Below, piece by piece: positions 3,884 through 25,103 of a stretch of 27,474 nt of DNA. The stretch is from Nanobdellota archaeon (GTDB lineage Archaea; Nanobdellota; Nanobdellia; Pacearchaeales; GW2011-AR1): positions 1 to 27,474 of the forward strand of contig JBBSZC010000007.1 of the NCBI GenBank assembly GCA_038044925.1. The letters are read 5' to 3'. The position numbers and the translations under genes were made by a program. Each line of letters starts with the position of its first letter. The first letter of the stretch is position 1. The notes below the pieces were generated by a model. It saw only the letters and a list, made by a program, of their open reading frames with translations, made no database searches and was not told the origin of the DNA.

Positions 3884-5980
3884 TCAGCAATTTCTTCCCA
3901 TTATCATTGAATAAGGTGTTCTTAAAAGAGTAACTAAATCTTCTGGAAGCATGAACTTTTCGTGGAACTTTCTATGATAGTCTAAAGCACATTCTGTTTC
4001 ACTTGGGCATTTATCTGTTCCTCTATAAGCTTGAAACCTAGTAGTTACACCAGCTGTACCATCCATAAATATGTTCTGGAATTCAACAGGAAGCGCGTCA
4101 ATAGCTTTTTGATGTTGGGGTCTTTGGCCACCTACCATCCACATATCCCCTTTTAATACATTTATAATTTGAGTTAATTCATCTAAAGAGAATTTTCTAA
4201 TAATTTTTCCAACTCTTGTTATTCTTGGGTCATTTGGGTTTTTGTAATTTGCCCCTGGATTTACAAAACCTTGTTTACGAGTTTCTTCAAATTGTTTATG
4301 TGCATTCTGGTTCATTGATCTAAACTTGCGCATTGTTGTTTCTTTATGATTAACTATTACTTTTTGTTTATAAAATACAGGTGCTTTTAATCCGGATTTA
4401 AGCGCTTTTATTGGGCCTAAATGTAGATTATCATATACTTCTTCTGCTTTTATTGCAGTGCCAATTCCAAGAGTCAATAAAGCTAAACTAGGCACCCATA
4501 GTGGTGATGTAGCAGTTAAAACAGAAAGATCAAATGCACGTTTAGTATAACGGTTTATATCAACAATATGCCCTTTATACCAATCTCTTATTTCTTGAGT
4601 GAGAAGAGAATAGGCTTGATTATTATTTTTTTCTTTTTCTTGAATAATCTCGTCTAATTCATTTACTAAAGCATCTTGGGTTAATGATTCTGAGTTGTTT
4701 TTGTTTGCTCTTACTAATAATTCTCTAATCGCTTCAAGATGGGGATTTTGAATTTGAACAGAATTTTCATCTTCTTTCTCTTTGCGAATACTGGCTGCAA
4801 AATCCTGAATTTGAGATGTACTTATTACATAATCTTCTAATCTTAATCTTTTTGGTTTACTTTTTAATCTTCTGTAATTATTTTTTAAAGAACTTACAGT
4901 CCTTTTAAACCAACCAGGTGCGTTGATTTTTGATTTCTCCTGTGAGGGGGTTATAACAGATGCAGGTTGTTCATGAATATTAGACATTTCTTCTAAATCT
5001 TTGTAATTAGAAATAACCGTTCTTCTTTTTTCTAATTCTGACAGGAAAGGAGAATATTCAAATTGTAAGTTTGCAGGCAGTTCTTTTGCAACTTCCTCCT
5101 GCAATTTTGTATTATAATCTGTTTTATTTAAGTAATTAAGGAGATTTTTTATTTCAACAGGCTTAAGTCCGGTGTTTATTCTATTCCAGTGTTCAGTGAA
5201 AGCAGAGAAGTCAGATGCTTCCTCTAAATTTAAATATCTTCCATTTTTATTAAAAAATTCTTTTTCCCATCTTAATTCTTCAGCTACTAATGCAATTCCT
5301 TCGCTATAATCTAGTTTTTTTGATAAAAGTTCTATTGGTCTGTAATCTTGAGCTTGGTTTAATGAACTTTCTAAAGAAGAATCTATGTATTCTTCTGGTT
5401 TAGTATTAATTGTTTCTTTTGATTCAGTATTAATTGTTGTTGAATAAGGAACTGTGATATATGAATCTAAAATTTCTGTTGGTGTTTTTCTTGTTCTTGG
5501 CTGCCTTTTTTTAAGTTCAGGATCTATGTCAGAATCAATTAATCTATTAATCATCCTGTAAAAAGTTGAACTGCTTACGCCTTTATTCTCAATAATTTTT
5601 TTAACAGGTGTTTTTGTTGTTTTATAAAGATAAACCATTTCTCTTATGTCATCATAACTTAATTTGGTATATGACTCTTTTTTTTGTGTTGCATATCCTG
5701 TTTCATATTTAGACATGTTTCTAAGAGAGTTGTCAACAAGGATTCTATTAGGGTTATAAGAATGCCAAGGTTTAGCTGAATCTTGCGGGAAATCAATAAT
5801 TTGTGTTTCTAATCTTCTTGTTTCTAGGGGAATATTAGCGCTTTCACTTTCTGTATAAATCTCATTAAATTCAGATGAAAAAGGATCAACTATTTCTGCT
5901 AAACCTCTTGATGGATAAGCTAATTCTGTTCTGCTTGCAACAAGGCATCTTCTTGAATTTTTTTCTGTATTTTTTATCAT
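3884..5980 (-). CDS. Monotopic phosphoglycosyl transferase (bacterial sugar transferase, WbaP/PglC type) fused to a ~475-aa N-terminal extension with an HTH
   Basis: The C-terminal ~220 aa carry the family hallmarks. These are a re-entrant helix with Ser-Pro (FDLSVLTATSPLWVPSLALLTLGIG), KFRSM, DPRITRVGKIIRKFSLDELTQIINVLKGDMWMVGG (Asp-Glu dyad), and a distal LDYHRKF...LLRTPYSMI block. The N-terminal part has an HTH-like segment (LSYDDIREMVYLYKTTKTPVKKIIENKGVSSSTFYRMINRL, about nt 5540-5662). Confidence 0.8.
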   Translation of the reverse strand: MIKNTEKNSRRCLVASRTELAYPSRGLAEIVDPFSSEFNEIYTESESANIPLETRRLETQIIDFPQDSAKPWHSYNPNRILVDNSLRNMSKYETGYATQKKESYTKLSYDDIREMVYLYKTTKTPVKKIIENKGVSSSTFYRMINRLIDSDIDPELKKRQPRTRKTPTEILDSYITVPYSTTINTESKETINTKPEEYIDSSLESSLNQAQDYRPIELLSKKLDYSEGIALVAEELRWEKEFFNKNGRYLNLEEASDFSAFTEHWNRINTGLKPVEIKNLLNYLNKTDYNTKLQEEVAKELPANLQFEYSPFLSELEKRRTVISNYKDLEEMSNIHEQPASVITPSQEKSKINAPGWFKRTVSSLKNNYRRLKSKPKRLRLEDYVISTSQIQDFAASIRKEKEDENSVQIQNPHLEAIRELLVRANKNNSESLTQDALVNELDEIIQEKEKNNNQAYSLLTQEIRDWYKGHIVDINRYTKRAFDLSVLTATSPLWVPSLALLTLGIGTAIKAEEVYDNLHLGPIKALKSGLKAPVFYKQKVIVNHKETTMRKFRSMNQNAHKQFEETRKQGFVNPGANYKNPNDPRITRVGKIIRKFSLDELTQIINVLKGDMWMVGGQRPQHQKAIDALPVEFQNIFMDGTAGVTTRFQAYRGTDKCPSETECALDYHRKFHEKFMLPEDLVTLLRTPYSMIMGRNC

Positions 5981-8944: not shown

Positions 8945-9397
8945 ATGAATGATAAGCGGGTATATCAAATTGGAGATAAATATTTTAGAGTAAATGTTTC
9001 TATGGCAGTTGATTGTCATTGTAATTTGAAATATCTTTATTCTGGAGGTAAAGTTCCAGGATGCAAAGGGCTTTTAAAAAAGGTAGATATTTTTATAGGA
9101 AAACAATATGAAAAAGGAAAAGGAATTATCTTTGATGATTCTTTTTGGGAGTCTTATCCTTCTATGTCTGTATTAATAAATGGAGATTCTGGTGAAACTA
9201 GTTGTTTTTATCTTGGAGATGACGAAAATATGCGTATAGCAAGATTAAAAGGATATGACTTATGCTTAATTAAAAAATTAAAAGAGCAGGGAGTAAAAGT
9301 TAAAGAAAAACTTTTATCAAAAGGAGAAAAACATGTTCCAAAAGAACATGTTAATTGGAATATAAATTATAATGATTCTTTAGAGCGAAAAGCTTAA
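8945..9397 (+). CDS. Hypothetical protein (150 aa, several Cys), divergent from polB
   Basis: Clean ATG-to-TAA ORF with complex sequence (…VDCHCNLKYLYSGGKVPGCKG…). No family recognised. Confidence 0.5.
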   Translation: MNDKRVYQIGDKYFRVNVSMAVDCHCNLKYLYSGGKVPGCKGLLKKVDIFIGKQYEKGKGIIFDDSFWESYPSMSVLINGDSGETSCFYLGDDENMRIARLKGYDLCLIKKLKEQGVKVKEKLLSKGEKHVPKEHVNWNINYNDSLERKA

Positions 9398-9421: not shown

Positions 9422-9850
9422 ATGGTAGCAAGAACAATAACTCCATACGAAGTAAGAGAAGATTTAACTGATAGGCTTAGAGATATCCAGTCTAGACAAG
9501 ATGGAGCAGAGTACATTCAGTTTTGTCAGGAGAATGGATTTGATTTAGAAGATGGATATTTAGCAGACAGAGGAGAAATTGAATTGCTTGCTGAAAGAGA
9601 TTTAACTACATCTGAAAAGATAGGCAGGGATTTATATGAATGTATTGAGTTAGAAGGTTATTCTTCATTTGATTATCCTGATAAAATTAGAACTATTTTT
9701 AAAGAAAATGGAATTATTAAATTGCCTTTTATGGGCAGAGATACATCTATTATAGCTATTGGAAGATACGATCTTACAAAGTATGCAGTTAGTTTAATGG
9801 ATAATTATAAAAAATTGTTAAGAATTAATCCACGAGTTGCTTTTAGATAA
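9422..9850 (+). CDS. Hypothetical acidic protein (142 aa)
   Basis: ATG-to-TAA ORF starting 24 nt after the preceding gene, followed 30 nt later by fen. No family recognised. Confidence 0.5.
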   Translation: MVARTITPYEVREDLTDRLRDIQSRQDGAEYIQFCQENGFDLEDGYLADRGEIELLAERDLTTSEKIGRDLYECIELEGYSSFDYPDKIRTIFKENGIIKLPFMGRDTSIIAIGRYDLTKYAVSLMDNYKKLLRINPRVAFR

Positions 9851-12454: not shown

Positions 12455-14878
12455 TCATAATCTCTTCTCTATTTTTACTGCTGTTGGAGCTTCTCCTCCG
12501 TGCCATGTAAACCTAGGCCTTATACGCATCGGATATATTCTTTCTGAATTGTCATCAAGAATTATTGCAGAACCCTTAAGTTCAGGAAGATTATTTATTT
12601 GTTGTTTTATTCCTTCTAATACATAGCTCTGCATTATATAATTTAAGGCTTCTAAGTCTGGTTTTGCTGTAATTTTATGCGAAATAACAATATCTGCTTG
12701 AGTCATTACATCTTTATGAATTTGTCCTGGCTGCTGTGTGGCTAAGACAAGAGAAATTCCTGGCTGTCTTCCTTCTCTTAACAACTGAATTAAGGCATCA
12801 GTTGCTATTGTTTTTCCCCTTAATGGAAGAAATTCATGGGCTTCATCAATAAAAATCCAGACTAAGGGATATTCTTTTTTTTCTGCTCCAGACAAATACT
12901 CAAGCCCCTTTGCTATAGAATCAACTTCTTCTTTTTTTCTCATGAGCATTCTTTGATTAAAAATTTTTCTTGAAATTAAGCTTATCGCTAGAGCTCTTAT
13001 ATTAAAAGCTCCTACTGAATTATACACACTCAAATCTAAAACAGTGGTTAACCCAGGGGTTATTAAATCATTAATCTGTGTTTTATCAGATTCTTTTTCA
13101 GAGAAAATTCCCCAGGTTTTTGCTGCTTCAAATAGGCCTATTGCAGCATTTTTTATTTCTTGAGAAGTATTTTTATCTTGGATTATTGTTGCGATAATAT
13201 CCTCTATTCTAAAATTTTTCTTTTCTTTTAATCTGGACAAAACCCTTTCAATTAAAATTGCTACCGGATTTATCATATCTAATCCAAAAGTTAAAATCCA
13301 ATCTTCTGAAGTCATTTCATTTAAATCCAGGGAGAATTTATCATCTGCAAGGATTCCCCTTTCTCTGTAGTAATCATAATAACCGACTGGAACAAATATT
13401 TTTACAGGAAGATTTTTTGGTTTTAAACCCCATTGAGACAAAAGTTCTTTATCTTTTTGATTTTGATATTTCATAGTCCAATAAATTCCCATTGTATCAA
13501 AAATTAAAGAAGCAATATTCTGGCTTACTTTTTCATCAAGGTTTGAGAGTTCTTCTGCTATGACACCTAAAGTATAAGATTTTCCTGAATTGTGTGAAAT
13601 TATTCCGTTTGCAATAAACGAGTGATTTTTATTTACAGATAGGTCATAGACTTCATTAATTTCTTGGATTTCTTTTATACTCTTTATTCTTCTACATACT
13701 AAGTTATCTGATATATAGAATGTTTTTCTTTTTCTTGTCTTATTATCCTTATGTTTTTCTAATCTGTTTTGCTTAAATCTACTTATAAATCCAATCTTCT
13801 TGAAATTCTCCATTGAAGAATTATCTGTTATAAAGAGTCGATAATTTTTATATATCTTATTTGCGCATTTTGCATTTTTTTCTCTTATAGAGGATTCTAT
13901 CTCAAAATGTGATAAAATTAATTGCAAATCTTCTAAAAACTTTCTTGACTTGCTGGAATAATCTATATACTTGCCGTTGTTAGCAATATATCCATCACAC
14001 GAGAAGAGTGCCGATAAAAATTGTGCTTTGAATGTATTGGAACTCTCCAATACAATTTTAGGTATTCTAATTATTCCTGCTTTGTTCCCTAAAGGTACAC
14101 CTAATTCATGAATCTTATTAACAACTCTTGCATAAAGCGATTGAACAACAGAGCAGTCACAATCATTTCTTTTATATTGTTTTACATATAATCCAAATTC
14201 TTCTTCTAAATCTTTTTTTGCTATATTCAGTACATTTTCATCGTTGCAGAATATTCTTAATCTGCTTTTTGTCCCATTATACCAGCTACCTCTTCCATCT
14301 TTCCATCTTCCTTTTCTCTTGCTTATCGTTCCATCTGATAAAACAAATCCCAATATTCTTGCAAGTCTAAGGCTTTTTTCATTTTTTTTGATTTCTTGCA
14401 ATTTTGTAGATAAAATTATTTTATCTCTTGTTTTTAATTCTTGGGCCATTCTCCAAAAAAGATATTTTCCATAATTAACAAGCAAAGGATGTTCTTTAGT
14501 AAGTTGTAATTTTCTTCCATCATCTAATTCTATTTCTAATAATTTTTCTTTTGAAATATCATATTGTAAAAGTTCCGCATTTTCCCATTCAAACTCTTTT
14601 TTCTCTTTGTTAAATGAAAGAACTCTGTTTTCTTTTGAGTTGAATTCTTTTATAGGTTTATATCCTTCGTTTGTGAATATTAATGTTTCTCCTGTTAAAC
14701 ATCCTCTTTTTCCTGCAACTAGGACAACATGGGTTTTTGCAATGTCCATAAATAGGTTGTTGCTTAGAGAAGTGTATTGCCCCATTTTTACATAGCTCTT
14801 TCCAAGGTAAATTATGCCTTTTTTGCCTATTAATTTTTTATCAGATTCGTCTCTTCCAAGTATTATATCATAAGGCAT
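12455..14878 (-). CDS. HerA/DUF87-like P-loop ATPase interrupted by an intein (extein about 436 aa)
   Basis: Joining the exteins restores Walker A (VVLVAGKRG|SGKSYTLGV). Walker B is VWIFIDEAHEF, and the C-terminal LLREGRQPGISLVLATQQPGQI...ADIVISHKI is typical of HerA/FtsK-like DUF87 ATPases. Confidence 0.85.
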   Translation of the reverse strand: MPYDIILGRDESDKKLIGKKGIIYLGKSYVKMGQYTSLSNNLFMDIAKTHVVLVAGKRGCLTGETLIFTNEGYKPIKEFNSKENRVLSFNKEKKEFEWENAELLQYDISKEKLLEIELDDGRKLQLTKEHPLLVNYGKYLFWRMAQELKTRDKIILSTKLQEIKKNEKSLRLARILGFVLSDGTISKRKGRWKDGRGSWYNGTKSRLRIFCNDENVLNIAKKDLEEEFGLYVKQYKRNDCDCSVVQSLYARVVNKIHELGVPLGNKAGIIRIPKIVLESSNTFKAQFLSALFSCDGYIANNGKYIDYSSKSRKFLEDLQLILSHFEIESSIREKNAKCANKIYKNYRLFITDNSSMENFKKIGFISRFKQNRLEKHKDNKTRKRKTFYISDNLVCRRIKSIKEIQEINEVYDLSVNKNHSFIANGIISHNSGKSYTLGVIAEELSNLDEKVSQNIASLIFDTMGIYWTMKYQNQKDKELLSQWGLKPKNLPVKIFVPVGYYDYYRERGILADDKFSLDLNEMTSEDWILTFGLDMINPVAILIERVLSRLKEKKNFRIEDIIATIIQDKNTSQEIKNAAIGLFEAAKTWGIFSEKESDKTQINDLITPGLTTVLDLSVYNSVGAFNIRALAISLISRKIFNQRMLMRKKEEVDSIAKGLEYLSGAEKKEYPLVWIFIDEAHEFLPLRGKTIATDALIQLLREGRQPGISLVLATQQPGQIHKDVMTQADIVISHKITAKPDLEALNYIMQSYVLEGIKQQINNLPELKGSAIILDDNSERIYPMRIRPRFTWHGGEAPTAVKIEKRL
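13589..14701 (-). mobile_element. Intein (371 aa) with a LAGLIDADG homing-endonuclease domain, inserted in the Walker A P-loop
   Basis: It starts at Cys60 (CLTGETLIF, block A). Block B is LQLTKEHPLL, and the two LAGLIDADG motifs are LARILGFVLSDGTI and FLSALFSCDGYI. The C-terminal splicing blocks are VYDLSV...NHSFIANGIISHN, followed by +1 Ser (SGKS). Boundaries were verified at the nucleotide level (TGT at 14699-14701, AAT at 13589-13591). Confidence 0.9.
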
Positions 14879-15128: not shown

Positions 15129-16160
15129 ATGGAAGAGGAAAATAATCCAATAACAGAAAAGGATAATAATTTAATAAAAGGCAATGAAAATAGAACCAGT
15201 CTTACTGATAAAATGAGAGGCAATCCTTGGATGGTTGCAACTATTATATTAGGATTATTCAGCTTGACTATGTTATTTGCTAGCATTTCAGGAAAATTAA
15301 CAGGAAATGTAATTTCTGGAAGTGATGCAGGAGATATATTATTAAATCTTTATGAATCAAGAGGTGCAGAAGGGCTTAATATTTCATCTGTAAAAGAAAT
15401 ATCAGGAGTGTATGAAGTTAATTTTCTTTATCAAGGAACAGAAATTCCAATTTATGTTACTAGAGATGGAAAGTATGCAGGAACCTTAAATTCTGTAACA
15501 GGTTCGGCTGATTCTGGGTCTGGAAATGCTGCAAGTCAAGAAATTCCTAAGACAGACAAACCAAGTGTAGAGTTATATGTTTTTACATATTGTCCTTATG
15601 GATTGCAGGCTGAGAAAGGAATAGTCCCTGTTGTTAAGCTTTTAGGGAATAAGATTAACTTCAAAATAAGACAAATCGGAGCAATGCACGGAGATTATGA
15701 AAAAGTAGAAGCTGAGAGACAATTATGCATAGAAAAAAATTATCCTGACAAATTTTATGATTATTTGAGTACTTTTGCATTAGATTCTACAATTGGAGCT
15801 TGCAGAGGAGAAGATGCTTGTGTGTTGCCTAAGATAAAGGCTATTTATACTAAATTAGGGATTGATAGTGCTAAAATAGATGCTTGTATGAAAACAGATG
15901 GAGTTAGTTTATATGCTGCTGAAGAAACTAATGCCCAAACAAATGGCGTAAGTGGTTCACCAACTTTAATAGTTAATGGAATAGTAACAAACAGTGGAAG
16001 AGATTCTGCTTCTTATCTTGATACTATATGCCAAGCTTTTACAGAGGGAAAGGTTCCTAGTGAGTGTTCACAGCAATTAAGCAGTGTATCCCCTTCTGCA
16101 GGATTTGGAGCTTCAACAGGTTCAGCATCAAGTTCTAGTGCTGTGCAGTGTGCAACTTAA
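15129..16160 (+). CDS. Membrane-anchored thioredoxin-fold (DsbA/glutaredoxin-like) protein with monothiol CPYG and a Ser-rich tail
   Basis: There is an N-terminal TM helix (WMVATIILGLFSLTMLFASI). The thioredoxin-fold signature is VELYVFTYCPYGLQAE...GVSGSPTLIVNG. Eight Cys are present in total, and the tail is GASTGSASSSSAVQCAT. Confidence 0.65.
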   Translation: MEEENNPITEKDNNLIKGNENRTSLTDKMRGNPWMVATIILGLFSLTMLFASISGKLTGNVISGSDAGDILLNLYESRGAEGLNISSVKEISGVYEVNFLYQGTEIPIYVTRDGKYAGTLNSVTGSADSGSGNAASQEIPKTDKPSVELYVFTYCPYGLQAEKGIVPVVKLLGNKINFKIRQIGAMHGDYEKVEAERQLCIEKNYPDKFYDYLSTFALDSTIGACRGEDACVLPKIKAIYTKLGIDSAKIDACMKTDGVSLYAAEETNAQTNGVSGSPTLIVNGIVTNSGRDSASYLDTICQAFTEGKVPSECSQQLSSVSPSAGFGASTGSASSSSAVQCAT

Positions 16161-21466: not shown

Positions 21467-22726
21467 TTAGTCTTTGAGCCTTCCTGTTAAATCTTCTCGC
21501 GGGATTCCCCGGGCATTTATCAACAAAATTAGTTGAGACCTATTGTTTTCATAAGATTTTGAGCTTGTTAAATCCTTAATTAATGGGATTTTATTTAATC
21601 CAGGAACCCCTCTTGTAACATCTTTATACCTGGAAAATAAAGAATCTAATGCGAAATATGTTTCTCCTTCCTGAAGAACATAATTACTGCTTAAGTTTGC
21701 ATCTCTGAATATAGGAATTTGTTCTGTTGCTGTATATCCAGTTTGTTCTCCAGACTCCATTTCATTTATTTCAAGATTGATGTAACCATCATCATTTCTA
21801 TGGGCTTTGCCTATAAATTGTACTCCAGTTTTTTTGTATTCTACTGTTTTTATTAAATTGTCTTTTACAAACACAAATTGCGGGAATGGAATAGAAGACA
21901 TATTGCTCATCTTTACTTCTTGCCCATTTGATGCAAGCAGGTCTAAATCTGCAAGGATTTCAACATGCCCCCTGCTGTCTAAAAATTTTACGATGCTATT
22001 AAACTCATATCTTTGATTATCTAAACTGTATAATGGATTGCCATAAACACCCATTGTTAGACTTTTTCCATCTGAACTGCTTGGAAGATTTAAACCTAAA
22101 ATAGATTTTCCATCTCGTAATATATCTAAAATATTTTCTCTATCATATGTGTTGTCTCCAAAAAACTCCAAAAGCTTTATTTTTATTCTTATTTGTTCTG
22201 CAGGAATATCCATCTGATTTAATAAAGTTGAAAAATAACTAAAATCCCCGAATTTTTCCCTTGGTCCGGAAAAAACCACCATATTCCTCTGAGGAAATTC
22301 ATGCATTTCTATATCTGATAAATGTGGCTCGACTAATTCAATAAGCTCTTTAGGAGACACTCTGCATTTGTAAAGCAAGACCAATCCACCAGTAGCATTT
22401 TCTATATACTCTGCATTTATTAATGGAACTTTAAAAATTGTATTAGGTGTTGCATTAATTACTTCTTCAAGGGCAGTTGCTGGCCTTTGTTCTTCTTTTA
22501 AGTAAGTTCTGTCATTTACAACAACCCTTTGGTTTTGAGCATCATGTTTTTCATAATCAATTTCTATTTTTTGAAAATCTAGAGCGTCTTTGTTTTTTTG
22601 AGTGTCTGCCCTAAAAATTTCCTGATATGGGTCAAATTTTCTCTGTTTTTCTATTGAGCTACATCCAAGAATTGTAGAAAAAGATAAAATTCCTGCTAAG
22701 ACGTTTCTTAATAATCTTTTTTTCAT
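21467..22726 (-). CDS. Secretin-family protein with a lipoprotein signal peptide (Secretin_N/NolW-like domain plus secretin C-domain)
   Basis: The probable start is Met8 (22724-22726), giving MKKRLLRNVLAGILSFSTILG|C with lipobox Cys at 22661-22663. The N-domain ends in NMVVFSGPREKF...LLNQMDIPAEQIRIKIKLLEF. The secretin core reads FLDSRGHVEILADLDLLASNGQEVKMSNMSSIPF, VEYKKTGVQFIGKAHRNDDGYINLEINEMES, IPIFRDANLSSNYVLQEGETYFALDSLF, and RGVPGLNKIPLIKDLTSSKSYENNRSQLILLINARGI. Confidence 0.8.
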   Translation of the reverse strand: MKKRLLRNVLAGILSFSTILGCSSIEKQRKFDPYQEIFRADTQKNKDALDFQKIEIDYEKHDAQNQRVVVNDRTYLKEEQRPATALEEVINATPNTIFKVPLINAEYIENATGGLVLLYKCRVSPKELIELVEPHLSDIEMHEFPQRNMVVFSGPREKFGDFSYFSTLLNQMDIPAEQIRIKIKLLEFFGDNTYDRENILDILRDGKSILGLNLPSSSDGKSLTMGVYGNPLYSLDNQRYEFNSIVKFLDSRGHVEILADLDLLASNGQEVKMSNMSSIPFPQFVFVKDNLIKTVEYKKTGVQFIGKAHRNDDGYINLEINEMESGEQTGYTATEQIPIFRDANLSSNYVLQEGETYFALDSLFSRYKDVTRGVPGLNKIPLIKDLTSSKSYENNRSQLILLINARGIPREDLTGRLKD

Positions 22727-22812
22727 GCAAACCTTCTGATATAACACTTTAAAAGGATTTGTTTGCTGAAAAATGCAGAAAACTTTATATAGTTTGGAGT
22801 ATCTGTTTTATT

Positions 22813-23199
22813 ATGATTTGGAAAAGCTTAGAAAAAAGATTAAAGCAAGGTGCTTTGGTTACTGGATTGTTGGTTGGATTATCAAGTTCTGTTTCTGATG
22901 CAGATACAATTTATTATGGAAAATTAAAAGGCGCACAGAGAATTGCATATGTTGAGTTTGATGAAGTAAAGGTAGAGAGTAAATACCATAAACAACTTGA
23001 AAGATTAAGTGAAACAGATCCGAAATATACTGTTTTTGTTAATAAGAGATATAATAGCATAGTAGCAGCAATTACAGAAGTTGCTAAAGAAGAAAAATAT
23101 GATGTGGTTATTGAAAAAGGCGACCCAGATGTAAAAAATTCTACTGATATTGGAGAACTTGTCATGGCGAAATTAGAGGAAATTGAAAAAGATGCCTGA
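22813..23199 (+). CDS. Secreted OmpH/Skp-like protein, miniature form (short coiled-coil arm)
   Basis: From the ATG at 22813 there is a signal peptide MIWKSLEKRLKQGALVTGLLVGLSSSVSDA. The two ends then resemble the OmpH/Skp body: an N-terminal strand RIAYVEFDEVKVESKYHKQLE, and C-terminal IVAAITEVAKEEKYDVVIEKGDP...STDIGELVMAKLEE (compare the family pattern i..ai..vAkekgydlVld....DiT..V...L). It is divergent from the secretin with an ~86-bp spacer. Confidence 0.45.
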   Translation: MIWKSLEKRLKQGALVTGLLVGLSSSVSDADTIYYGKLKGAQRIAYVEFDEVKVESKYHKQLERLSETDPKYTVFVNKRYNSIVAAITEVAKEEKYDVVIEKGDPDVKNSTDIGELVMAKLEEIEKDA

Positions 23200-23312: not shown

Positions 23313-23492
23313 TTGGTCAATTATTTACGACTTTCATTATATCTATCCCCTAAATCTATTGGAGCAGGAACAATTGGAGCTTTAGGAACAAGTTTGTTAG
23401 TTCCTATGCTAGGAGTTTACTTTTTTCCAGGACTAGTCCTTTTTGGCTCTGCTTCTTCTTTGGTTAAGATTATTTCTAAAAAATTTAATTGA
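23313..23492 (+). CDS. Possible small hydrophobic Gly-rich membrane protein (only TTG starts available)
   Basis: The sequence ...SPKSIGAGTIGALGTSLLVPMLGVYFFPGLVLFGSASSLVKIISKKFN looks like one or two TM helices. There is no in-frame ATG before the hydrophobic region, and the ORF overlaps the pduL 3-prime end by 8 nt. Coding status is uncertain. Confidence 0.25.
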   Translation: MVNYLRLSLYLSPKSIGAGTIGALGTSLLVPMLGVYFFPGLVLFGSASSLVKIISKKFN

Positions 23493-24054
23493 TAATTAGT
23501 TCCCCATAAGATTTTTTATTTATTCCTGCTGCATTTGCTTCATCTGTATCGATTTGAAAAGCTAATTTATGTCTCTTTCCTGCTCTTATAATTACATTTT
23601 CAAATATCAATCCTCTTTTTCCTTTAACTCTTATCTTTACTTTTTGATTATTTTTTAGATTTAATTTTTTAGCTTCTTGTTCTGATAAATGAAGGTGCCT
23701 TTCTGCTATTATTAAACCAGTTGTTTTTATTTTTTCCTTAGAGCCCTTAATAATTATACCTTCAGAATTTTTTAAACCCCCTGAAAGATTTATTGGGGGA
23801 GTTTTTTTTAGTTTTAAATAATAAGAATCTGTTATTGAAATTTCAATCTGAGTTTTATTTCTTACAGGGCCAATAACCCTTGCTTTTAATTTCTTATTTT
23901 TATTTATTAATTCAACTTCTTCATTTGCTGCAAATTGCCCTGGTTGAGAAATAATCTTAATTGGCTTTAGTTTGTAGTTTTTCCCAAACAAGATTTCCAG
24001 ATGCCTTTTTGAAAGATGAACATGCCTTGCAGATATTTCAATTGGAATTTTCAT
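23485..24054 (-). CDS. pduL: PduL-type phosphate acyltransferase (phosphotransacetylase/propanoyltransferase analogue)
   Basis: Two PduL repeats are each introduced by the His motif: IEISARHVHLSKRHLEILFG and IIAERHLHLSEQEAKKLNL. The tail is AFQIDTDEANAAG. The gene overlaps the ackA stop (ATGA at 24051-24054). Confidence 0.85.
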   Translation of the reverse strand: MKIPIEISARHVHLSKRHLEILFGKNYKLKPIKIISQPGQFAANEEVELINKNKKLKARVIGPVRNKTQIEISITDSYYLKLKKTPPINLSGGLKNSEGIIIKGSKEKIKTTGLIIAERHLHLSEQEAKKLNLKNNQKVKIRVKGKRGLIFENVIIRAGKRHKLAFQIDTDEANAAGINKKSYGELIIN

Positions 24055-25103
24055 TTAATTATTTTTAATACCTCTCTTATTATTATTTCATCCTCATTTG
24101 CTGATTTGACATAGATTTTAACTTTAGAGGAGCTTGAAGATATTAGTCCTTTGTTTTTCTCGTTTTTATTTTTATCTAATTTTATTCCTAAAAAATCCAG
24201 ATGTTCACAGATATCTCTTCTTAGTCTTGGAGCATTTTCTCCTATTGCTCCTGTGAAGATTAGATTATTTAAGCCGTCTAAAACAGCGGTGTAAGCACCA
24301 ATGTATTTTATTATTCTGTAAACGAACATATCATAAGCAAGTTTTGCTTCTTTATTTTTTATGTTTTTTAAAATGTCTCTGAAATCCGAATATTTTTGGT
24401 TAGTTATACCTTTTATTCCTGATTTAATATTAAGAATTTTATCTGTATCATATCCTTTTTTTTCAAGGAATAGAACTATTCCTGGATCAAGGTCCCCACT
24501 CCTGGTACACATCATTAGTCCTTCTAATGGAGTTAAACCCATTGAAGTGTCTATTGGCTTATTATTTTTTATTGCAGTCATGCTCGCGCCTCTTCCTAGA
24601 TGGCAAGTTATTGTTTTTCCCTTTAATCCCCTTGAAACTGATTCATGAGAAAGTCCATGAAAGCCGTATTTTCTTATGTGATATTTTTTTGAAAGCTCTT
24701 TAGGAATTGGATAAAGTTTAGTTATTTCTGGAAGTTTTATAAAAAAACTAGTATCAAAAACAGCGAATTGAGGTTTTTTGAATTTCTCTGCAAGGTTTAT
24801 TATCATTAATTCTCTGGAATTATGCAAAGGAGCGAATTTAGAAAAATCTCTTATTTTTTCTTTTACCTTTTTATCTATTTTTACAGGGCTTTTCATATTT
24901 CCTCCATGAACAACCCTGTGCGCTATAATATCAAAACCAACTTTTTTACTCAATTCATTGCTTATTTTTTCAAAGGATTTTTCATAATCTTCTTTGCTTT
25001 TCAATTTTTCATATTTTCCTTCTAAAATTTTTTCCCTATTTTCAAAGAGGCTAAATTTTATTGTAGAGCTTCCAACATTAAAAACAAGTATTTTTTTCAC
25101 CAT
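24051..25103 (-). CDS. ackA: Acetate kinase (compact, 350 aa)
   Basis: ILVFNVGSSTIKFSLF, HRVVHGG, FDTSFF, YGFHGLSHE, CHLGRGASMTAIKNNKPIDTSMGLTPLEGLMMCTRSGDLDPG and FTGAIGENAPRLR are the canonical acetate/propionate kinase blocks. Confidence 0.9.
   Translation of the reverse strand: MVKKILVFNVGSSTIKFSLFENREKILEGKYEKLKSKEDYEKSFEKISNELSKKVGFDIIAHRVVHGGNMKSPVKIDKKVKEKIRDFSKFAPLHNSRELMIINLAEKFKKPQFAVFDTSFFIKLPEITKLYPIPKELSKKYHIRKYGFHGLSHESVSRGLKGKTITCHLGRGASMTAIKNNKPIDTSMGLTPLEGLMMCTRSGDLDPGIVLFLEKKGYDTDKILNIKSGIKGITNQKYSDFRDILKNIKNKEAKLAYDMFVYRIIKYIGAYTAVLDGLNNLIFTGAIGENAPRLRRDICEHLDFLGIKLDKNKNEKNKGLISSSSSKVKIYVKSANEDEIIIREVLKIIK

Follow-up and report, generated by a model that had tools for sequence, protein, structure and literature searches.

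Secretins are taken as a hallmark of the diderm envelope of bacteria. What, then, is a secretin gene doing in an archaeon? The question is posed by a 27,474-nucleotide stretch of DNA from a Nanobdellota archaeon (contig JBBSZC010000007.1 of assembly GCA_038044925.1; the whole stretch is called the window below). Its minus strand carries a gene that is deposited at NCBI as 'hypothetical protein AABX30_02720 [Nanoarchaeota archaeon]' (P0001). The product of this gene is a member of the secretin superfamily, and beside it lies a second gene, for a miniature exported protein that resembles Skp/OmpH. We are highly confident that the two genes represent a native archaeal secretin with a Skp-like partner. 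The secretin gene and its parts are the following:

21467..22726, minus strand: secretin-family gene, 419 amino acids (aa) from its ATG
22661..22726, minus strand: signal peptide and lipobox (MKKRLLRNVLAGILSFSTILG, then C), aa 1-22, with lipidation predicted at Cys22
22427..22660, minus strand: family-specific N-terminal region, aa 23-100, with the conserved columns HEIFR..N..KN, IEIDY and NxRAYLK
22157..22426, minus strand: N3-type (ring-building) domain, aa ~101-190, ending in MDIPAEQIRIKIKLLEF, placed from model topology and profile alignments
21509..21982, minus strand: C-terminal secretin domain, aa 249-406, containing the conserved RGVPGLNKIPLI motif and covering positions 2-166 of the 169 in Pfam PF00263

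Is it truly a secretin? A preliminary description of the window had read a secretin core in this gene, and the Pfam Secretin profile (PF00263) bears it out: the match to the window protein spans aa 249-406 and scores 63.4 bits (gathering cut-off, GA, 27.5; E 2.6e-17). The same profile matches all 13 aligned members of the family to which the protein belongs, the best at E 3e-23. The Secretin_N-like module described alongside the core holds in substance, for there is an N3 ring-building domain by structure and profile alignment, but the Pfam Secretin_N profile (PF03958) is not reached; it finds nothing in the window protein at E <= 1 and only 2 of the 13 members, at E >= 0.035. When a profile built from the family is compared with proteins in the PDB, it retrieves E. 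coli GspD (3.9e-14), Neisseria PilQ (8e-14), phage f1 pIV (3.5e-12) and RcpA (5e-6). The alignments to GspD, PilQ and pIV start at family positions 120-143 and cross both the '...DvPaeQiRvklkivEyF' motif and the C-domain. Within these significant alignments the N3 region falls on the N3 domains of pIV and GspD, and GspD residues 284-576 are aligned with the C-terminal secretin domain.

The predicted structure speaks the same language. In the AlphaFold 2 (AF2) monomer model, aa 100-180 form a beta-alpha-beta-beta-alpha domain with a predicted local distance difference test score (pLDDT) of 85-90. Further on, pLDDT is mostly 75-89 (aa 260-330 and 341-360), with dips to 62 (aa 331-340) and, beyond aa 360, to about 50, and confidence is low across the family-specific region at aa 23-100. 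Searched against the PDB with Foldseek, the model returns secretins at every one of ranks 1-40 (InvG, GspD, PilQ, BfpB, pIV and RcpA, with E from 1e-14 to 3e-9; BfpB is 9u5s_A, E 1.5e-11), and there is a sharp break after them, with rank 41 at E 0.12.

What kind of secretin is it? The protein belongs to the superfamily and lies outside the named subtypes GspD, PilQ, SctC, MshL, PilN and pIV. It misses the NCBIfam cut-offs for GspD (TIGR02517, 38.6 bits vs 351), PilQ (TIGR02515, 36.7 vs 284), MshL (TIGR02519, 28.5 vs 250), SctC (TIGR02516, 25.4 vs 238) and HofQ (24.5 vs 554), and the type IVb PilN model (TIGR02520) gives no match at all. The order of its parts is simple: a signal peptide with lipobox, some 80 family-specific residues, the N3 domain and the secretin domain. 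An N0 domain is absent, and aa 23-100 have no counterpart in other secretins; in fact, secretins from outside the family align to its profile only from position ~86-106 onward. Only about 13 residues follow the secretin domain, so that no S-domain is present, and the protein has no further hydrophobic segment beyond the signal peptide.

The open reading frame (ORF) first delimited here was a mechanical one, 21467..22747 on the minus strand, which gives 426 aa from a GTG at 22747. Both this ORF and the three peptide strings quoted from it were recovered in the translation. The true start is more likely the ATG at 22726 (419 aa, MKKRLL...), because the database gene call and the homologues begin there, and because a TATA-like TTTTAAA about 30 nucleotides (nt) upstream of this ATG would fall inside the GTG extension.

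Could a bacterial secretin gene have been wrongly joined to archaeal DNA, by assembly or by binning? Two things would suit such an artefact: secretins are otherwise bacterial or phage proteins, and the metagenome contig has low coverage (cov ~5 according to its ENA record name). However, three assemblies, namely the NCBI metagenome-assembled genome (MAG), an ENA assembly of Hainich groundwater and a Logan assembly (run ERR3858116), match the window with 100% identity over 16.0, 10.9 and 2.6 kb, and all three cross the junctions of the secretin gene. Nor is there any break in composition. The GC content of the gene is 0.324 (window mean 0.302 +/- 0.021), its GC content at third codon positions 0.226 (0.197 +/- 0.032) and its codon-usage cosine 0.948 (0.923 +/- 0.047), while tetranucleotide z-scores across it run from -0.5 to -1.0. 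The statement that the gene shares the composition of its neighbours is thus borne out on all four measures, and the neighbours are archaeal, as had been said: the window encodes small and large RFC subunits, a family-B DNA polymerase, FEN1, a Trm5/TYW2 protein and an intein-containing HerA. Beyond the window, at least 11 further distinct loci carry homologues beside archaeal markers, five of them inside the superoperon of RNA polymerase (RNAP) and S12 genes. By comparison, a real bacterial secretin, P0015, which served as control, has a wholly different context, a classical GspE/F/G/K/M operon with PolA. With junctions identical in three assemblies, an unbroken composition and homologues on archaeal contigs, we give an artefact practically no credence. 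The secretin gene is a native one in this DPANN archaeon, a member of the Pacearchaeota/Woesearchaeota group, and has been inherited vertically together with the adjacent Skp-like gene.

How large is the family, and who carries it? Searched exhaustively with the family profile, 1.84 billion representative proteins yielded 19 family representatives at E <= 1e-30, below which scores drop steeply to 120 bits; the search retrieved 17,060 secretins overall. Members are 32-53% identical to the window protein, and 65 columns of their alignment are invariant. In a scan of one genome per GTDB species, where detection was limited by the search patterns used, the family turned up in eight species. Seven of these are labelled Pacearchaeota or Woesearchaeota, to which the family is restricted as far as sampled. 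The eighth is labelled 'Candidatus Paceibacterota bacterium' (L016, DAOTCN010000001.1, a 389-kb contig; L031, Ga0116155_10000017, 304 kb). Around its secretin gene, however, the L016 contig encodes Rpb1/Rpb2-type RNAP subunits, an RpoB with Rpb2 domains 4 and 5, RpoA, a KH-only NusA, S12, S7 and EF-2, and the organism appears to be a mislabelled archaeon of the Pacearchaeota type. The genomic context of the most divergent member, P0028, does not reveal its domain of origin.

The position of the gene recurs from species to species. In five of them (L014, L016, L017, L019 and L027), RpoB-RpoA-NusA flank the secretin gene and its neighbour on one side and S12-S7-EF2 on the other; in L006 and L010 the pair comes after IleRS-TrmB-ArgRS; and other contexts are GatD/GatE (L011) and thermosome with Kae1 (L015). 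Gene order mostly tracks the neighbour-joining tree of the secretins, with the IleRS-TrmB-ArgRS context recurring in two separate branches. The ratio of nonsynonymous to synonymous substitution rates (dN/dS) is 0.15 for the pair L006/L021 and 0.21 for L017/L019, which is purifying selection. The gene had been called an old, retained one, and both its synteny inside archaeal core operons of other species and the selection on it agree. A functionless remnant of horizontal transfer might account for the patchy distribution over eight GTDB species, but it sits badly with intact secretin ORFs in at least 16 lineages, with the invariant residues and the low dN/dS values, and with a lipobox and a partner gene that have both been conserved; we see next to no chance that the gene is such a relic. 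The RNAP genes of these loci have a peculiarity of their own. Most archaea split RNAP subunit A into A' and A'' genes; at L016:12260-15697, and in the homologues of L014, L017, L019 and L027, it appears as a single ORF of 1145-1158 aa with Rpb1 domains 1-5.

Where did the family come from? An attempt to name a donor clade was rejected, GspD, PilQ and pIV being equidistant from the family. Its nearest relatives outside are short, unclassified secretins whose contigs are archaeal for P0032, bacterial for P0034 and of unresolved origin for P0033. P0032, the best non-family match of the family profile (E 6e-30), is itself a lipoprotein secretin, of 364 aa and with a signal ending in ...LPYLTG before the cysteine. 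It is encoded at L032:5898-6992, on contig JAIYQP010000050.1 of GCA_053531595.1, an archaeal contig of 32% GC on which it adjoins L21e-RpoF-DUF655-S13-S4-S11-RpoD-L18e-L13 and on which no Skp-like gene was found. Since P0032 lies outside the family and on an archaeal contig, there are at least two archaeal secretin lineages. The bacterial short secretin P0034 (441 aa; L034:8001-12814) is found in an unusual pairing, directly upstream of a MacA/MacB-type periplasmic adaptor, an ABC ATPase and an FtsX-permease.

What does the secretin gene travel with? Only 86 bp separate it from a divergently transcribed gene that the preliminary description had overlooked:

22813..23199, plus strand: companion gene for an exported mini-Skp/OmpH-like protein, 128 aa (NCBI AABX30_02725); the mechanical ORF runs from a TTG at 22759
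22727..22812, no strand: divergent intergenic region, 86 bp, with A/T-rich TATA-like boxes read directly from the sequence

One of these boxes, TTTATATA, stands about 22 nt upstream of the companion's ATG, and the other is the TTTTAAA already mentioned for the secretin, on the opposite strand; they may mark the promoters of the two genes. A scan of the locus for bacterial sigma-70 promoters and terminators stayed at chance level (12 sigma-70 sites against 13.5 expected from shuffled sequences).

A homologue of the companion adjoins the secretin gene in 11 of the 14 distinct loci with enough flanking sequence. The two genes are convergent in most loci and divergent in the window, and because the pair has been kept in both orientations, the adjacency has survived rearrangement. 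No other neighbour recurs across the 14 loci. The companion family comprises 23 clusters in a database of 5.8 billion proteins, and an N-terminal hydrophobic export signal is present in all of its members. The Pfam OmpH profile (PF03938) matches 16 of 22 members at E <= 0.01, with a best E of 7.6e-8. Against PDB sequences, the profile of the companion family has OmpH/Skp as its top three matches and as five of the eight up to E 10 (E 0.006-0.25). The AF2 model of the window companion reaches a pLDDT of 82.9 overall and more than 90 for aa 30-128, and its Foldseek matches in the PDB at ranks 1-10 are all Skp/OmpH, followed by unrelated noise. Among them are E. coli Skp (1u2m_A, template-modelling (TM) score 0.74, root mean square deviation 2.7 A), SkpA of the type 9 translocon and Caulobacter CC_1914. 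Given the OmpH profile matches in most of its family, the Skp fold and the export signal, the companion is a miniature exported Skp-like protein.

The likeness to Skp has its limits. Like Skp, the companion is small and exported, its C-terminal half fits the OmpH profile in most members, and its predicted fold superposes on the E. coli protein. Unlike Skp, it is archaeal, and its mature part has only ~95-100 residues, so that the helical 'tentacles' are much shorter. In typical bacteria skp is encoded next to bamA, whereas the companion gene lies beside a secretin gene. In two of the loci without a Skp-like gene, L004 (the locus of family member P0012) and L011, the secretin gene is followed by a gene for a protein of 380-396 aa (L004:11417-12607 and L011:6372-7514; the copies are 38% identical). 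This protein contains a long coiled coil, with a transmembrane segment at its N-terminus and a DFNGDG (FG-GAP-like) motif at its C-terminus, and it could be an alternative partner or a connector from membrane to ring.

How would the secretin be exported and anchored? A lipobox was taken to be the pattern [LVI][ASTVI][GAS]C after a signal peptide, its cysteine being conserved. In the window secretin the box reads TILG before the cysteine, and Cys22 is invariant in all 13 aligned members; the PROSITE-type regular expression matches 19 of 26 family representatives, and most of the others are near misses. The preliminary description had called this a bacterial-style lipoprotein signal. The invariant lipobox cysteine stands, but the signal is not specifically bacterial: predictions make lipobox proteins prevalent in DPANN archaea, where AliA, the lipidation enzyme of archaea, also occurs (PMC12462473), and the lipobox of the secretin is therefore compatible with native archaeal processing. 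Four secretins (P0009, P0013, P0016 and P0022) carry motifs of the twin-arginine translocation (Tat) type, TRRDFL or TRRNFL, ahead of the hydrophobic segment, and so do about six companions, among them P0167, P0169, P0180, P0182 and P0184, which is one more difference from Skp. In some lineages, Tat may therefore be the route by which the secretin and its Skp-like partner leave the cytoplasm, already folded. Bacterial secretins are not known to be exported through Tat.

Could the gene instead be carried by an integrated virus or a mobile element, its product being a pIV-like secretin for virion export by an archaeal virus of the filamentous type, perhaps working with a Zot/HerA-like ATPase? 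Some likenesses to pIV speak for it. In single-sequence searches pIV of f1 is the best PDB match of the window protein (E 7e-5), it also has the highest target-normalised TM-score with the secretin model (0.65), and the M13 pIV family of PHROGs matches at E 7e-16. A HerA-like ATPase that weakly matches Zot is encoded 6.6 kb from the secretin gene in the window, and another one 2 kb from it in L004. Yet at profile level GspD and PilQ match at least as strongly as pIV does, and the score with the pIV family of PHROGs does not exceed that with the generic Pfam profile. No relative was found among 2.9 million viral contigs (IMG/VR), there is no integrase, capsid or other virus gene nearby, and the position inside core operons is kept across species whose secretins are 32-53% identical. 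As for the ATPase, its candidacy as a conserved partner was rejected: the one in the window is an ordinary intein-bearing archaeal HerA that shares only a P-loop-level match with the 689-aa ATPase of L004 (28% over 100 aa), and the other loci have none. A viral origin of this kind strikes us as very improbable.

Which known systems come closest to the archaeal secretin? The closest analogues are the bacterial lipoprotein secretins of the BfpB kind and phage pIV. With the BfpB-type liposecretins, known from the type IVb pilus of enteropathogenic E. coli, it shares the lipobox signal peptide, the compact size (~400-550 aa), the N3-type and secretin domains and the lack of an S-domain. It differs from them in having no TIGR02520 match, no pilus genes nearby and 80 N-terminal residues specific to its family. 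Moreover, the archaeon that encodes it has no known Lol pathway or outer membrane, and the anchor would sit in the cytoplasmic membrane. The pIV protein of f1/M13 (PDB 7ofh) is of nearly the same length (414 vs 419 aa) and has the same N3 and secretin architecture; it works without a pilotin, has an N0 domain and is not known to be a lipoprotein. The archaeal protein has no viral context, and GspD and PilQ match it slightly better than pIV at profile level. Unlike BfpB-like secretins and pIV, it is partnered by a Skp-like protein, not by a pilotin or pilus genes. GspD and PilQ themselves give the best profile matches over N3 and secretin domains, and the (G/V)P-L-x-x-IP motif and the gate-region glycines are present in the family; in contrast to them, the archaeal protein has no N0, N1, N2 or AMIN domains and no GspC/E/F/G or PilM-P genes nearby, and it scores far below their family cut-offs.

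How might such a pair work? The precursor would be exported, by Sec in the window genome and apparently by Tat in some relatives. Cys22 would be lipid-modified by the archaeal lipoprotein pathway, which would tether the N-terminus to the outer face of the cytoplasmic membrane, and with the lipid anchor in the only known membrane, the barrel would point outward. In the extracytoplasmic space, the Skp-like protein would hold the aggregation-prone, beta-rich C-domain until assembly. N3 and secretin domains could then assemble into a multimeric, double-walled, gated ring. Proteins, DNA, a filament or other macromolecules may pass in a regulated way through this wide conduit, which would cross either the outer layer of the archaeon itself or the membrane of a host cell attached to it. 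The preliminary description had likewise proposed a pore in one of these two places, and nothing found here contradicts it. That the secretin forms a gated multimeric envelope channel with the help of its companion, by this whole route, seems to us somewhat better than an even bet.

Several points weigh against it. Our searches met with no literature on the envelope architecture of these archaea, we know of no outer membrane described for them, and the hydrophobic belt of a secretin normally needs a bilayer. Among the window proteins there is no component of a type II secretion system (T2SS) or pilus, just as first reported, and in the Pfam-annotated loci no ATPase of a T2SS or type IV pilus, no platform protein, pilin, type III secretion or phage gene lies within 10 kb of the secretin; with no secretion-machine gene nearby, the neighbourhood therefore gives no pointer to cargo or energy source. 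The family is no general DPANN feature, as only eight GTDB species representatives were found to carry it, in a scan limited by its search patterns, and three loci (L004, L011 and L015) lack the companion. The window companion itself scores 24.0 bits with OmpH, below the GA of 32.4 and over the C-terminal 50 profile positions only, and the Foldseek E-values of its model are modest, 4e-3 at best and up to 0.65. The monomer model of the secretin has a moderate mean pLDDT of 64.9, and its TM-scores normalised to the query are low (0.23-0.42), as is to be expected of such a model.

If there is a channel, which membrane would it cross? We consider it on balance doubtful, though worth taking seriously, that a Pacearchaeota/Woesearchaeota lineage builds a trans-envelope channel of the bacterial type, be it as portals in an unrecognised outer membrane or as a ring driven into a host membrane. 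The host-directed version envisages a lipid-tethered ring whose barrel tip is inserted into the membrane of the attached host and takes up metabolites, lipids or DNA. Its carriers are DPANN archaea with reduced genomes, the N-terminal anchor in the archaeon's only membrane would point the barrel away from the cell, and the module stands alone with its two genes and no export machine nearby. Some bacterial secretins are known to insert into membranes without the BAM machinery; on the other hand, the gate of a secretin normally opens only with the help of a partner. The sole related item in the literature is a barrel 'reminiscent of' a secretin, made of an unknown protein, that cryo-electron tomography has revealed at the contact site of another DPANN-host pair (PMC11329633). 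This barrel, however, is 21 nm wide and belongs to a Micrarchaeota-type organism, and the present secretin family was not found there. A pore aimed at the host is in our judgement unlikely.

The other version would have these archaea possess a true outer membrane, with secretin and Skp as a bacterial-type system for outer-membrane proteins derived from an ancient transfer. Both proteins are hallmark components of a diderm envelope and they are genetically linked; a second archaeal secretin lineage exists; and double membranes are known in a few archaea, Ignicoccus for example. In addition, one family-bearing genome, that of P0012 (L004), has clusters of lipobox proteins and a second secretin, a 1200-aa GspD-type protein with N0, Secretin_N and Secretin domains. 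The stretch concerned is L004:19974-21347 and beyond, on the 75-kb contig k141_73054, which is the same as Ga0315274_10000307, and the 1200-aa secretin likely starts at an internal Met, with a lipobox (...LLMIG before C) after it. Still, several bacterial secretins do not depend on BAM, so that a secretin alone is no proof of an outer membrane, and we regard this version as quite improbable.

What would follow from a secretin in archaea? In the full text of 8 million papers, our searches turned up no account of secretin genes in DPANN or any other archaea, several apparent matches being no more than the word 'secreting'. Work comparing type IV filament systems holds that secretins are absent from monoderms and archaea (PMC6668835). 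Some DPANN archaea carry an envelope component that nobody has looked for, and with it comes a concrete molecular candidate for the movement of large molecules across the surface of ultrasmall archaea, or into and out of their hosts. Outer-membrane-like compartments would be possible in more archaea than the few known cases, and for evolution the pair records an ancient inter-domain transfer of parts for outer-membrane biogenesis, which were kept and diversified. Were the trans-envelope channel true, secretins would no longer be exclusively bacterial or phage proteins, and archaea would hold at least two independent lineages of lipoprotein secretins; were its host-membrane form true, it could be the long-sought pore by which episymbionts take up macromolecules.

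The loci hold further genes of interest in their own right. The L004 locus encodes two DUF4056 paralogues with lipoboxes and a CsrA-like protein besides its 689-aa DUF87 ATPase, and L011, syntenic with it, has three DUF4056 genes together with archaeal GatD/GatE. In L006, the contig of P0004, NrfH-like (Cytochrom_NNT) and NrfA-like (Cytochrom_C552) genes of a cytochrome c nitrite reductase (L006:12446-14275) lie about 1 kb from the secretin-skp pair, in a MAG labelled DPANN. In the window, two unannotated ORFs (8945-9397 and 9422-9850) were considered as pilins and rejected; neither has a signal peptide or a class III signal, and neither matches anything in Pfam or PHROGs. The HerA gene mentioned above (12455-14878, minus strand) encodes an 807-aa HerA/DUF87-type ATPase with an intein (Intein_splicing at aa 67-430) that contains a LAGLIDADG homing-endonuclease domain. 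Two other products are likely related to the envelope. One has 698 aa and a bacterial sugar transferase domain at its C-terminus (3884-5980, minus strand); the other, anchored in the membrane, has 343 aa, with Ser/Gly-rich linkers and a weakly matching DsbA-like thioredoxin domain (15129-16160, plus strand). Finally, immediately past the Skp-like gene (23485-25103, minus strand), the genes for a phosphotransacylase of the PduL type (PTAC, E 3.5e-61) and an acetate kinase (E 5e-99) are translationally coupled, a bacterial-style acetate/ATP module in a DPANN genome.

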